A stretch of 64,000 nucleotides of DNA from an uncultured Rickettsiales bacterium (GCA_964445765.1 CAYULD010000002.1:139505-203504); one strand, 5' to 3'. Counted from the stretch's first letter, positions 45,681 to 50,430 are shown. Program-made: numbers and translations. Notes: generated by a model from the letters alone, not told the origin.

Positions 45681-47783
45681 TTGCTTAGAATTATTGGCAA
45701 ATATGTTTCTGATTTTTTCTTTCTTGAATATAATTTGGGCAGAATAGCTTTGCTGATTCCAATTATTTTTGCTTCTGGAATTGCAAGTTATTTCTGCTTA
45801 AAATTTGAGCCTAAAATTACCCCTTCAATATATGCGGTGATAATGTTTTTATCACTTGCTCTGCTTGCTTATTATAAAAAACGCTTAGTTTATTTTTATT
45901 TATCAATTTCTTGTTTAATATTTTCAATAGGTTTTTTGCTTGCAAAAATAGAGGCGGATTATAAAAACCACCCAAAAATTCAAGAAAATCTAGGCGTTAT
46001 ATGGCTTAGAGCTAAAATTCATAAAATTGAAGCAGAGGAAAAATTTAATCGCCTTATTCTAAAAGAAAATAATTTATGGCAACCTAAAATTGGTAAATTT
46101 TCAGAGGATAAAACCCCAAAATATATAAGGTTAAATGTAAGAACAAAATTAACCCAAAATGGCAAAATTTTAGATTTTAGCAAACTTAATCAAAATGATT
46201 ATATTCAAGTAAAAGTTATTTTGTCTCCACCTGCTTCACTTCCTGCTTTTCCTAATGCTTATGATTTTGCAAAATATTCTTATTTTGAAGAAATTGGTGC
46301 AGTTGGCTTTGCTATTTCAGAAGTAAAAATTTTAGAAAAAAACCAAGCGGATTTCATTCAAAAATTGCGTAGCAAAATTAATCAAAGAATTGAAAAATCA
46401 TTTGAAGATAAAAAAACTATAACCATTGCGAAAGCCTTAGTAACTGGGGATAGGGCGGCACTTGATAACCAAACTAATGAAAAATTAAGATATAGTGGGC
46501 TTGGGCATATTTTATCTATTTCTGGCTTGCACCTTTCAATTGTAATGGTTTGGGTTTATGGTTTTTTAAGGCTTTTAATTGCATTATTTCCTATATTTGC
46601 CTTAAAATTTGATAGCAAAAAAACCAGTGCAATTCTTGCAATATTATTTGGGCTAATCTATTTATTCATAGCTAACAAGCCAATTCCAGCGGTTCGCTCA
46701 TATTTAATGTTAACCTTATTTTTTGTCGGAATATTATTTAATAGAGAAATTTCACCCTTTCGCCCTTTAGCACTTGCCGCCTTAATAATATTAATTATTG
46801 AGCCAAGCTCTTTAGTAAATGTATCATTTCAACTTTCATTTGCGTCTATTACTGCACTAGCTGGAATCTATGAAATTTACATTCGTTATTTTGGAAAAAA
46901 TAATGAAAATCACAATGAAAATTTTATAAGAAAATTTTTCAAATATTTACTGGGGATTATTTTTTCTTCGCTAATTGTTGGGTTTATAACTGGGCCAATT
47001 ATGGCTTATCATTTCAGTAATGTTTCTAAGTTTTCTGCGGTTTCTAATCTGTTAACTTTGCCGTTTGTAAGTTTTATTACAATGCCATTTTTAGCAATTG
47101 CAACTTTGTTTTCCGCCTTTTCATTTAGTGAGTTTTTATATAAGCCTGCTGAAATTGGTATAAAAATTATGCTTTTTTGTGCAGAAAAATTTGGTGATGC
47201 AAACTCTGGTATTATTAGAATATCTGCACTTCCTGAGTATTTCTTAATATTAATTTCTTGTGCGTGGCTATGGTTTTTTACCTTTTCTAGTAAAATTAGA
47301 TTTTTAGCAATTCCGTTTATTATTTCGGTTTATGCTCTTATTATTTTTGCCCAAAAACAGCCAGATATATTGATAGATGAAAAAGCTAAAACTTTTATAA
47401 TCAAAGCCAATAATGAATATTATATTTATGGCAGAATTGGTGGCTTTAAGCTGAAGCAATATAAAGAAAAACTAGGCGTAAATCAATTTTTGAGGAAAAA
47501 GAAAAATGAAGAAGATAAATTTTGTAATGATAGTTTTTGTGAGATAAAAAATATTTTAATCGCTAGAAATAATATAAAACTTAGAGAAAACCTAAATTGT
47601 AAAAAATATAAGGTTGTTGTTAATTTAACTGATGATAAAATCTGCCAAGCTCCAGCTAAAAACAAAATTATAACCAAAGATAGCCTTAAAAATTATGGCA
47701 CTCATTTAGTTTGGCAAAACGGCAGAATTGAAAACTCAAGAGATTTTTCCGGCTATAGAATTTGGAATTTTTCTAAACTTTAA
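45681..47783 (+). CDS. comEC: ComEC/Rec2 family DNA internalisation channel protein
   Basis: 700-aa polytopic ORF with a TTG start and the competence-domain motif YSGLGHILSISGLHLSIV. Confidence 0.8.
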   Translation: MLRIIGKYVSDFFFLEYNLGRIALLIPIIFASGIASYFCLKFEPKITPSIYAVIMFLSLALLAYYKKRLVYFYLSISCLIFSIGFLLAKIEADYKNHPKIQENLGVIWLRAKIHKIEAEEKFNRLILKENNLWQPKIGKFSEDKTPKYIRLNVRTKLTQNGKILDFSKLNQNDYIQVKVILSPPASLPAFPNAYDFAKYSYFEEIGAVGFAISEVKILEKNQADFIQKLRSKINQRIEKSFEDKKTITIAKALVTGDRAALDNQTNEKLRYSGLGHILSISGLHLSIVMVWVYGFLRLLIALFPIFALKFDSKKTSAILAILFGLIYLFIANKPIPAVRSYLMLTLFFVGILFNREISPFRPLALAALIILIIEPSSLVNVSFQLSFASITALAGIYEIYIRYFGKNNENHNENFIRKFFKYLLGIIFSSLIVGFITGPIMAYHFSNVSKFSAVSNLLTLPFVSFITMPFLAIATLFSAFSFSEFLYKPAEIGIKIMLFCAEKFGDANSGIIRISALPEYFLILISCAWLWFFTFSSKIRFLAIPFIISVYALIIFAQKQPDILIDEKAKTFIIKANNEYYIYGRIGGFKLKQYKEKLGVNQFLRKKKNEEDKFCNDSFCEIKNILIARNNIKLRENLNCKKYKVVVNLTDDKICQAPAKNKIITKDSLKNYGTHLVWQNGRIENSRDFSGYRIWNFSKL

Positions 47784-48552
47784 TAGGGCTGAAATTTTGA
47801 ACTAGTGATCCCGCTTCCATTTTTGCAGGTGCATCTGGCTTGCCATATTCTTTTAATGCTTCAACAATATCTGCCATTTTCTTAAAGCCAATATCTATGT
47901 GGGCGTTTTCTCTACCCTTAAATTTCATAGAAAATTTAACCTTATCGCCATCTTGCAAAAATTCTACCGCGTGTTTAATGCGATATTCTAAATCGTGGGG
48001 ATCAGTATTATAGCGGAGTTTTATCTCTTTTAAGTGAACAATTTTTTGATGTTTTTTTGCTTCTTTCTTTTTCTTTTGTTGCTCATAGAGAAATTTACCT
48101 AAATCCATTATTTTACAAACTGGCGGCTCTGCATTCGGGGAGATTTCCACTAAATCTAAATCTGCATCTTGTGCCATTGAAAGGGCTTCTCTAAGGGCTA
48201 TAATACCTACCATTTCGCCGTTTTCATCTATCAAGCGAACGGGATCAGCTTTAATATATTGATTAACTTTAGGCCCATCATTTTTGGCATTTTTTGCGTA
48301 TTTATCTTCTTTTTGGTTATTGTTATCCCTTTTGAAAGGTGGCCTTGCACCGCTATTAAAAGCAGGCTTAGAGCCTGAGTTAAACGGAGGTTTAGAGCCA
48401 GAATTGAAAGGAGGCTTTGTGCCTGAATTATAAGGTGGCCTTGCACCTGAGTTATTATTTGGGTTTTGCGGTCTATTTCCGAAAGATTGGTTATTCGGTT
48501 TTGGAGATGAAGGCCTATTGAAACCAGAGCCTTGGTTATTATCGTTATTTAT
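47773..48552 (-). CDS. infC: translation initiation factor IF-3, probably with a ~100-aa repetitive N-terminal extension and an AUA start
   Basis: The conserved IF-3 core runs from VNQYIKADPVRLIDENGEMVG...EISPNAEPPVCKIMD to the stop at 47773. The same frame stays open upstream to 48585. ATA at 48550-48552 is preceded by GAGGA (48557-48561). The minimal alternatives are ATT at 48255 or TTG at 48234. Confidence 0.6.
   Translation of the reverse strand: MNNDNNQGSGFNRPSSPKPNNQSFGNRPQNPNNNSGARPPYNSGTKPPFNSGSKPPFNSGSKPAFNSGARPPFKRDNNNQKEDKYAKNAKNDGPKVNQYIKADPVRLIDENGEMVGIIALREALSMAQDADLDLVEISPNAEPPVCKIMDLGKFLYEQQKKKKEAKKHQKIVHLKEIKLRYNTDPHDLEYRIKHAVEFLQDGDKVKFSMKFKGRENAHIDIGFKKMADIVEALKEYGKPDAPAKMEAGSLVQNFSPIKV
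48337..48456. repeat. five tandem 24-bp units encoding G(S/A)(K/R)PP(F/Y)NS octapeptides
   Basis: The units are aggtggccttgcaccgctattaaa / agcaggcttagagcctgagttaaa / cggaggtttagagccagaattgaa / aggaggctttgtgcctgaattata / aggtggccttgcacctgagttatt. They are in frame with infC. Confidence 0.8.
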
Positions 48553-48645
48553 AAAATCCTCACTTTTAGTTGTAAATCTATTGGTTTATAATGTTATAAT
48601 CAAACAATTTTGTCAAGGGCTATAAGTAAACTTGCACTTTACAAA

Positions 48646-49827
48646 CTATCTATCCACCTCACCGAAAACTATATCCATTGAGCCAAGCACCGCAACTACA
48701 TCCGCAAGCATATGGCCACGACATAATTCATCCATTGCAGAAAGATGCACAAAACCGGGTGCTCTTAAACGGCATCTATATGGTTTATTAGTTCCATCAG
48801 CCACTACAAACACGCCAAATTCACCTTTTGGGGCTTCCACTGCGGCATAATATTCACCCTCTGGCACATGATAACCTTCCGTATATAGCTTGAAGTGATG
48901 GATTAATGCCTCCATAGATGTTTTCATCTGGCTTCTAGTTGGCGGGGTAATTTTTTTATCCAGAGATTTAACCGCCCCTTCAGGAATTTGCTCACAAGCC
49001 TGTTTTATAATCTTGATTGATTCATACATTTCAGCAATTCGGCATAAATATCTATCATAACAATCACCATTTTTGCCGATTGGAATATCAAAATCCATTT
49101 TATCATAAACTTCATAAGGCTGAGATTTTCTTAAATCCCAAGCTATTCCAGAGGCACGAATCATTGGCCCTGAGAAACCTAAATCTAGGGCTTTTTCTGC
49201 AGAAACTGGGGCGATATCAACCGTTCTTTGCTTAAAAATGCGGTTTTCAGTAAGTAAATCTTCAACATCAGAGAGATATTTTGGAAATTCATTGGCAAAT
49301 TTCATAATATCTTCAAGCAAGCCTTGCGGTAAATCTCTAGTTACACCTCCGGGGCGAATATAAGCAGAATGCATACGAGAGCCAGAAACCCTTTCATAAA
49401 ATTCTATAATTTTCTCTCTTTCTTCAAACAGCCATAAAAGGGGCGTCATAGCACCAACATCAAGTGCGAAGGTGGTTACATTCATTATATGGTTTAATAT
49501 TCTAGTAAGCTCACTAAATATAACCCTTATATATTGTGCCCTTAATGGAACTTGGCATTTTAGCAATTTCTCAACGGCGAGTGCATAAGCGTGCTCCTGA
49601 CACATTGGGGAAACATAATCCAAGCGATCAAAATAAGGCACTGCTTGCAGATAAGTTTTATGCTCAATTAGTTTTTCAGTTCCCCTATGAAGCAAGCCAA
49701 TGTGTGGATCTGCCCTTTCAACAACTTCCCCATCAAGCTCAAGAATTAGCCTTAAAACCCCGTGTGCCGCTGGGTGCTGCGGGCCAAAATTCAGGGTCAT
49801 ATTTTTCAAAGAAACTTCTTTAGACAT
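48646..49827 (-). CDS. nuoD: NADH-quinone oxidoreductase subunit D
   Basis: 393-aa ORF with [28 protein letters not shown] and [21 protein letters not shown]. Confidence 0.96.
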
Positions 49828-49839
49828 TATGGTTTAAGA

Positions 49840-50430
49840 TTAATTGTTAACCTGCTTGTGATCAGGTGGGGTGGGTTTGCCAGTTGGCTTTCTTTTAATT
49901 ATAGTATTTGTTCTTTTGATTTTATCTTGCAGCTTAAGAACGCCATAAAGCAGGGCTTCTGCGGTTGGTGGGCAACCCGGAACATAAACATCAACCGGCA
50001 CTATTCTATCACAACCTCTAACAACTGAGTATGAATAATGATAATATCCGCCACCATTTGCACAAGAACCCATTGAGATAACATAGCGTGGCTCTGCCAT
50101 TTGGTCATAAACTTTTCTTAAGGCTGGTGCCATTTTATTGGTGAGTGTGCCTGCAACAATCATAACATCTGACTGACGCGGAGATGGGCGGAAAACCATA
50201 CCAAATCTATCTAAATCATAACGGCTTGCGGCGGTTTGCATCATCTCAACTGCACAACAGGCAAGGCCGAATGTCATTGGCCATAGAGAGCCTGATCTTG
50301 CCCAGTTAATAAGGTTATCTAGCTTGGCGATAACAAAGCCTTTATCTGTAATTTCTTCAGTAACAGCGTTTAAGATGTAATCTTGATCCGCACCCGCTGG
50401 AATCACCGGATTAATTAAGTTTTTTGACAT
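49840..50430 (-). CDS. nuoB: NADH-quinone oxidoreductase subunit B
   Basis: 196-aa ORF with [26 protein letters not shown] and YVPGCPP (the N2 cluster cysteines). Confidence 0.96.

Follow-up and report, generated by a model that had tools for sequence, protein, structure and literature searches.

Initiation factor 3 (IF-3) and the non-canonical start codon of its gene, infC, are textbook subjects in bacterial translation. The infC gene described here lies in a 64,000-nucleotide stretch of DNA (the window) from an uncultured Rickettsiales bacterium (GCA_964445765.1 CAYULD010000002.1:139505-203504), and positions are counted from the first letter of that stretch. The gene is on the minus strand (-), as is every feature below unless stated otherwise. 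It likely encodes an IF-3 of 259 amino acids (aa), with the reading frame beginning at a conserved ATA codon (48552-48550) and not at the TTG selected by gene callers. The additional N-terminal portion is a low-complexity extension with tandem octapeptide repeats. As judged from sequence comparison, it is almost certainly translated and under selection.

The IF-3 frame is open from an in-frame TAA (48586..48588), which closes it upstream, to a stop codon at 47773-47775. The revised coding sequence (CDS, 47773..48552) comprises 259 codons from the ATA followed by the stop TAG (47773-47775), and is supported by the open frame, by Pfam and TIGR00168 matches and by five relatives. The product scores 206.5 bits against TIGR00168 (infC), above the curated equivalog cut-off of 60. 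The IF3_N domain occupies residues 96-165 (48058..48267) and matches the full PF05198 profile (1-70 of 70, E=3.2e-33). This is followed by a lysine-rich linker, EQQKKKKEAKKHQK, and the IF3_C domain at residues 172-252 (47797..48039; PF00707, E=1.1e-25). The closest solved structure is that of Escherichia coli IF-3 (8jsg_A, E=2.5e-44), aligned over E. coli residues 14-177/180. There is no C-terminal extension, as the protein ends 7 residues past the Pfam IF3_C match and 2 past the alignment with E. coli IF-3. The N-terminal extension spans 48268..48552. An earlier reading of this stretch (the sequence-only reading) had proposed an extension of approximately 100 codons, and this stands in refined form: the extension has 95 codons when counted between the ATA and the first residue of the core, and 110 when counted from the upstream stop.

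The open reading frame (ORF) track and the public gene call P0001 both start infC at the TTG at 48232..48234 and give the same 153-aa product, which bears out the expectation that gene callers would truncate this gene. The TTG lies inside IF3_N and is not considered the real start, as the ORF list, P0001 and Pfam together indicate; the call removes 11 codons of the Pfam domain. Standard callers thus cut an essential gene to 153 aa, into its N-domain. The protein search revealed two close homologs, P0006 and P0008, that are likewise truncated, both starting MVGV.

It was confirmed on the sequence that no ATG, GTG or TTG precedes TTG 48234 in the frame back to the TAA. A scan for in-frame ATG, GTG, TTG, CTG and ATH codons (H being A, C or T) upstream of the conserved core returned only ATA 48552-48550, ATT 48255-48253 and TTG 48234-48232. 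The proposed initiation codon, ATA (AUA in the mRNA; 48550..48552), is the sole in-frame near-cognate in the upstream 100 codons and is preceded, 4 nt upstream, by the Shine–Dalgarno (SD) sequence GAGGA (48557..48561). The ATT (48253..48255), an alternative start, has no SD, its upstream 20 nt being GGCCTAAAGTTAATCAATAT. It encodes Ile100, a core residue that is invariant in a 24-sequence IF-3 alignment. The scan agrees with the sequence-only reading on both candidates.

The statistical argument for the open frame is of limited weight. Only 20/20,000 dinucleotide-preserving shuffles of 48256-48585 are without an in-frame stop, and the stop-trinucleotide frequency of the window gives a chance of P ~5e-4. 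The claim that an accidental open frame is unlikely holds to this extent. However, the +1 frame of the extension region contains just one stop, so composition alone favors an open frame. The statistic was down-weighted for this reason and is weaker than the comparative data.

Five tandem 24-bp units within the extension encode the octapeptides GARPPYNS, GTKPPFNS, GSKPPFNS, GSKPAFNS and GARPPFKR. The octapeptides had been recognized earlier; their coordinates required correction by 9 nt, to 48328..48447 from 48337-48456. Tandem Repeats Finder (TRF) reports a 24-bp period over 48355-48455 with 75-77% matches. Differences between the window units fall 18/16/48 at the first, second and third codon positions, and are thus mostly at third positions. 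In the relative L090, the peptide GSKPPFNS is encoded by three units that differ in their codons, with serine switching between TCN and AGC among other changes. As the units are ~75% identical in DNA and nearly identical in peptide, they represent old copies kept by peptide-level selection rather than the outcome of recent slippage. When scored against composition-shuffled controls, the units that come out higher are 5 in the window (all of them), 5 in L090, 4 in L004, 3-4 in L003, 2 in L001 and 1 in L091.

The composition of the extension is dominated by asparagine, proline, serine, lysine and glycine (N21 P15 S11 K10 G9), with a net charge of ~+10. AlphaFold2 assigns residues 1-90 a predicted local distance difference test (pLDDT) score of 47-57 without secondary structure, and the IF-3 core a score >90. 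The extension has no match to any Pfam family, and a PDB search with the extension alone returned just low-complexity tails (eS21 and the nucleoporin Nsp1). It is predicted to be an intrinsically disordered, basic tail that leads into ordinary IF3_N and IF3_C domains. KPPY/RPPF also recalls proline-rich antimicrobial peptides (e.g., oncocin), a likeness that extends over four residues only and was set aside.

Substitution patterns in related loci

Six loci were compared, namely the window, L090, L001, L003, L004 and L091, where the core identity of the relatives is 52-95%. Reading the DNA ahead of P0002 and of each truncated call revealed a frame that is open throughout and encodes comparable sequence. 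Measured from the conserved isoleucine codon, the extensions are 95, 95, 66, 90, 65 and 91 codons long in the order given above. The infC frame contains 0 stops in all six, including the 65-95 codons of the five relatives, with 4-19 stops in the +2 frame. The relatives share the repeats as well, with 1-5 units each.

The case for a coding extension is strongest in the substitution patterns. Between the window and L090, the extension differs at 9/5/39 first, second and third codon positions, with a ratio of nonsynonymous to synonymous substitution rates (dN/dS) of 0.055; the corresponding values for the core are 9/3/59 and 0.026. Between L001 and L004, the extension differs at 5/8/27 positions with a dN/dS of 0.08, and the core at 18/6/76 with a dN/dS of 0.03. 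Synonymous sites are near saturation in both pairs (proportion of synonymous differences, pS, ~0.6-0.7). The [RK]PP[FY] core of the unit is kept across lineages despite this saturated divergence. By these sequence comparisons, the extension is lineage-specific, kept by purifying selection and built around the unit G-[AS]-[RK]-P-P-[FY], present in two to five copies according to species.

The nearest infC homologs are from alphaproteobacterial or Rickettsiales metagenome-assembled genomes. A scan of species-representative genomes revealed just one close relative, L010, whose contig is that of L001, and a metagenome scan likewise just one, L092, whose protein is identical to P0004. One public annotation, MDX1949161.1 (“Rickettsiales bacterium”, 274 aa), keeps the extension at NCBI. 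It is an ortholog from a close relative, is encoded at locus L090, belongs to the same 90%-identity cluster as the window gene, is near-identical to the window IF-3 and carries the same five-unit extension. More distant homologs (P0004, P0005, P0010, P0017 and P0107) have called N-terminal extensions rich in RPPF/RPPY, with GTG or ATG starts. Including the cluster of P0185, IF-3 tails rich in RPPF/RPPY or PRP thus recur in uncultured bacteria. P/G/S-rich IF-3 N-termini were also seen in other uncultured lineages, e.g., P0166 (388 aa) and P0158 (278 aa). Extended IF-3s are already present without comment in public databases, as MDX1949161.1 and JGI gene calls show. Matches of the extension by tblastn in GC-rich Reyranella and Rhodospirillales genomes were rejected, being out of frame or compositional; the N-termini there are ordinary short IARP... 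sequences.

Pipelines disagree on the length of proteins in the Ignavibacteria/Chlorobiota IF-3 cluster of P0185, which have been called at 244, 203 and 186 aa; the N-terminus of the 244-aa form is rich in P/G/S. The infC start appears to be unsettled in other phyla too.

Start codon, Shine–Dalgarno sequence and promoter

When ~100 nt around the start were aligned across the six loci, the sole invariant block was GAGG-N-T-NN-T-AT(A/T). This corresponds to the SD, a 4-nt spacer and the ATA/ATT codon. The codon is ATA in the window, L090, L001, L003 and L091, and ATT in L004. The GAGG is invariant in the six loci, and the SD is GGAGG in L001, L003 and L091. A 2-nt indel separates the window from L090 just 5′ of the SD, so conservation of the frame does not extend any further upstream than the SD. 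Initiation at AUA, as proposed earlier, is supported by this conservation, and translation of infC very likely starts at ATA 48552-48550. The sequence-only reading thus withstood each of the three in silico checks that could have refuted it, on stops in relatives, on coding periodicity and on the start.

Of the 43 window ORFs that reach 120 aa, only 3 show an SD-like 4-mer in the 20 nt before the first start codon, a rough count as the true starts are uncertain. This suggests an SD-poor genome in which infC is one of the few SD-led genes and keeps a strong SD.

A sigma-70-like promoter is predicted at 48588..48616, with TTGACA at 48616-48611, a spacer of 17 nt and CATTAT at 48593-48588 (promoter scan 10/12). 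The end of the -10 hexamer overlaps the in-frame TAA that closes the infC frame. Both TTGACA and CATTATAA are kept in L090, and the former occurs at a similar distance in L001, L003 and L004. The leader of ~30 nt shows no significant folding (z=0.0), and an Rfam search of the region found no family. A structured element in the 5′ untranslated region was rejected on these two grounds.

In MDX1949161.1 (L090 3001-3045), the annotated TTG precedes the conserved SD-ATA by 15 codons and is placed between the predicted promoter boxes (-35 and -10). Downstream of the corresponding site, the window has an in-frame TAA. The start in this sole public annotation with the extension is therefore probably mis-set, being inside a predicted promoter, and similar inconsistencies are found in the IF-3 of other uncultured lineages. 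In L091 (2001-2015), the ATG of JGI call P0010 overlaps the SD (ATGGAGGCTTTTATA), and a likelier start is the conserved ATA that follows four codons later.

Start codons were also surveyed at 64 other infC loci from the genome scan (among L011-L089), mostly alphaproteobacterial, where the choice of start follows a heuristic of the present analysis and not the annotation. The best SD-associated in-frame candidate was ATA in 35, ATT in 13 and ATC in 7. Candidate ATA starts occur also in Reyranella and Rhodospirillales genomes of ~66% GC, with N-termini such as IARPAQQ. It appears from these sequences that AUA is a common start among alphaproteobacterial infC genes. This is in contrast to a review-type statement in the literature, in which the infC start is given only as AUU or AUC (PMC5499595).

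The motif of the repeat unit also opens some short IF-3s, which begin IARPPF, ISRPPF, IARPPL or IARPPM. In the window, the final unit (GARPPFKRD) is at the place of the ancestral tail of short IF-3s, before a charged spacer and the GP[KR]xN core. As the N-terminal motif I-[AS]-R-P-P-F resembles the unit, it is probable that tandem amplification of the ancestral IF-3 N-terminus produced the tail.

Proposed function of the tail and alternatives

Autoregulation of IF-3 through a non-canonical start codon has been described (PMC5499595 and references therein). The window gene and E. coli infC belong to the same family and share a non-canonical AUN start after an SD, an arrangement that IF-3 discriminates against (PMC5499595). 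Unlike the E. coli gene, the window gene has AUA rather than AUU/AUC as its start and encodes 95 extra N-terminal residues. It also lies outside a thrS-infC-rpmI-rplT operon, following nuoD and converging on comEC. The thrS-infC-rpmI-rplT neighborhood is typical of the IF-3 family and does not define it.

In mitochondrial and chloroplast IF-3, terminal extensions are considered to adapt the factor to the ribosome or to tune contacts with it (PMC6321546). Organellar IF-3s (human IF3mt, yeast Aim23p and the chloroplast factor) resemble the window protein in that the core carries an extension of tens of residues, lineage-specific and probably disordered. However, theirs are N- and C-terminal and non-repetitive, whereas that of the window is N-terminal only, consists of tandem octapeptides and belongs to a free-standing bacterial gene. 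No sequence similarity between the two was detected in Pfam and PDB searches. The window IF-3 is an analog of the organellar-type extended IF-3s and not a member of that group.

A variable, disordered terminal extension is also found on the bacterial initiation factor IF-2, where N-terminal extensions are enriched in phase-separation residues and data on growth under stress exist (bioRxiv 10.64898/2026.02.08.704698). Those extensions belong to another factor, are not built from octapeptide repeats and come with functional data. The C-terminal tail of kinetoplastid (Leishmania) eS21, (GARPPAQK)n, shares the 8-residue period, the GARPP core and the setting of a small-subunit protein (8a3w_SY, E=2.6e-5; 6az1_Y). 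It differs in being eukaryotic, C-terminal and without an aromatic residue, and the match is of low complexity with a high bias score. This likeness is probably convergent and not homologous. No description of a repeat-built N-terminal extension of bacterial IF-3 was found in the full-text literature searched, where such extensions are discussed only for organellar IF-3. A bacterial IF-3 can evidently carry a selected, repeat-built, disordered N-terminal tail.

From these data, a mechanism can be proposed. Transcription would start from the TTGACA-17-CATTAT promoter ~30 nt upstream, as the sequence and its comparison suggest. The short, unstructured leader would carry one of the few strong SDs in an SD-poor genome. 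This SD would recruit the 30S subunit to the weak AUA, offsetting the weakness of the codon. By homology with E. coli infC, IF-3 would discriminate against AUA and thereby repress its own translation when abundant. Such start-codon-dependent negative autoregulation is moderately probable on this analogy. As for the tail itself, it might tether IF-3 through multivalent contacts of low specificity with 16S rRNA, mRNA or platform proteins and so tune the residence of the factor on the 30S subunit. This tether is the weakest step, a tentative and rather doubtful suggestion.

Several points weigh against the interpretation above. An SD-like 5-mer with an in-frame ATH codon occurs ~30 times inside the long ORFs of the window. 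The SD + ATA motif was therefore rejected as strong evidence in its own right, and it is conservation, rather than the motif, that carries the argument for the start. The extensions of L005, L007 and L009 start at GTG without an SD; the clade sample comprises six loci with an SD-ATH start and three with a GTG start. Across the wider clade, neither the AUA with SD nor autoregulation through the start codon is accordingly universal. Homologs with 60-75% core identity carry anywhere from 0 to 5 units, which makes a precise structural role for the repeats unlikely. The match of the units to the ancestral tail motif spans just five residues, and the tether function has composition and analogy as its only basis.

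The alternatives differ in whether the extension is translated and in what it might do. Automatic callers pick TTG 48234, ATT is a classical infC start codon, and composition leaves two of the three frames nearly stop-free. A short IF-3 could on this basis start at ATT 48255 or TTG 48234, with the upstream 300 nt being an untranslated leader or non-coding repeat DNA, open by chance or composition. This is extremely improbable given the dN/dS of 0.055 and 0.08 in two independent pairs, the third-position bias and a frame kept through indels in six genomes. The ATT lacks an SD, and both it and the TTG are inside the Pfam IF3_N domain, where either start would lose the conserved DGPKxN segment. 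The region also lacks an Rfam match and a stable leader fold. Together, the substitution patterns and the old, peptide-constrained units effectively rule out a non-coding leader. A combination in which a long form is made from AUA and a short one from the internal ATT 48255, TTG 48234 or the conserved ATG in ENGEM is very unlikely. IF-2 is made as isoforms and provides a precedent, and there are in-frame candidate starts at the domain boundary. However, the internal candidates are all without an SD and, in all IF-3s, are codons for core residues that are invariant or conserved, so their presence is uninformative. A short product would also lose the first strand region of IF3_N.

If the extension is translated from AUA, it might still be functionless, a low-complexity expansion by replication slippage that is tolerated. 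Consistent with this, the tail is predicted to be disordered, its unit number (0 to 5) and spacer sequences vary widely between species, and IF-3s without a tail work in most bacteria. Yet the dN/dS of the extension is just 2-3 times that of a highly conserved core, which makes a purely neutral expansion unlikely. The near-identity of units in peptide at ~75% identity in DNA, and the [RK]PP[FY] core kept through saturated synonymous divergence, point the same way, and a functionless tail is judged improbable. Somewhat less improbable, and still unlikely, is a regulatory or auto-inhibitory module that lowers affinity for the large subunit or adapts the factor to a diverged ribosome. The genome is reduced, SD-poor and AT-rich, its ribosome may have diverged, and mitochondrial IF-3 extensions lower large-subunit affinity or act as adaptors (PMC6321546). 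Against this module stand the lack of sequence similarity to organellar extensions and of a C-terminal extension, and a basic tail (~+10) that points more to nucleic-acid binding than to masking. The present evidence fits the module and tether models alike.

The short tail at the N-terminus of bacterial IF-3 generally receives no attention and lacks order in structures. It is conceivable, if rather unlikely, that this tail ([AS]-R-P-P-[FY] or ARP) is itself a ribosome or RNA contact motif. A Rickettsiales-like lineage with almost no SD usage would then have amplified it to five copies, yielding a multivalent IF-3 with altered 30S binding or mRNA positioning. If true, small-subunit proteins might use such repeats more generally, as the convergent tail of GARPP octapeptides on kinetoplastid eS21 would hint. 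Tails with 0 to 5 units offer a natural series on the role of the IF-3 N-terminus.

Neighboring genes

Upstream of infC, nuoB is followed by a stand-alone nuoD of 393 aa (window 48646-50430 (-); L090 1156-2946), with no nuoC between them and no NuoCD fusion. The infC gene follows nuoB-nuoD in place of the rest of the nuo operon, in the same order in the window and L090. In other relatives it is downstream of thrS (L001, L004, L005 and L009).

Further along the window, an ORF of 1007 aa on the plus strand (51090-54113 (+)) has no Pfam or NCBIfam match. At 55448-58810 (-) there is a valine-tRNA ligase of 1120 aa (NF009687, 995 bits) whose catalytic and anticodon-binding parts are separated by an insertion of ~200 aa. 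Within this insertion lies a DUF559/Vsr-like endonuclease domain (residues 640-744; Pfam E=1.4e-40; NCBIfam PRK09767, 105.8 bits). An in-frame endonuclease domain inside an essential aminoacyl-tRNA synthetase is unusual and may reflect the insertion of a mobile element.

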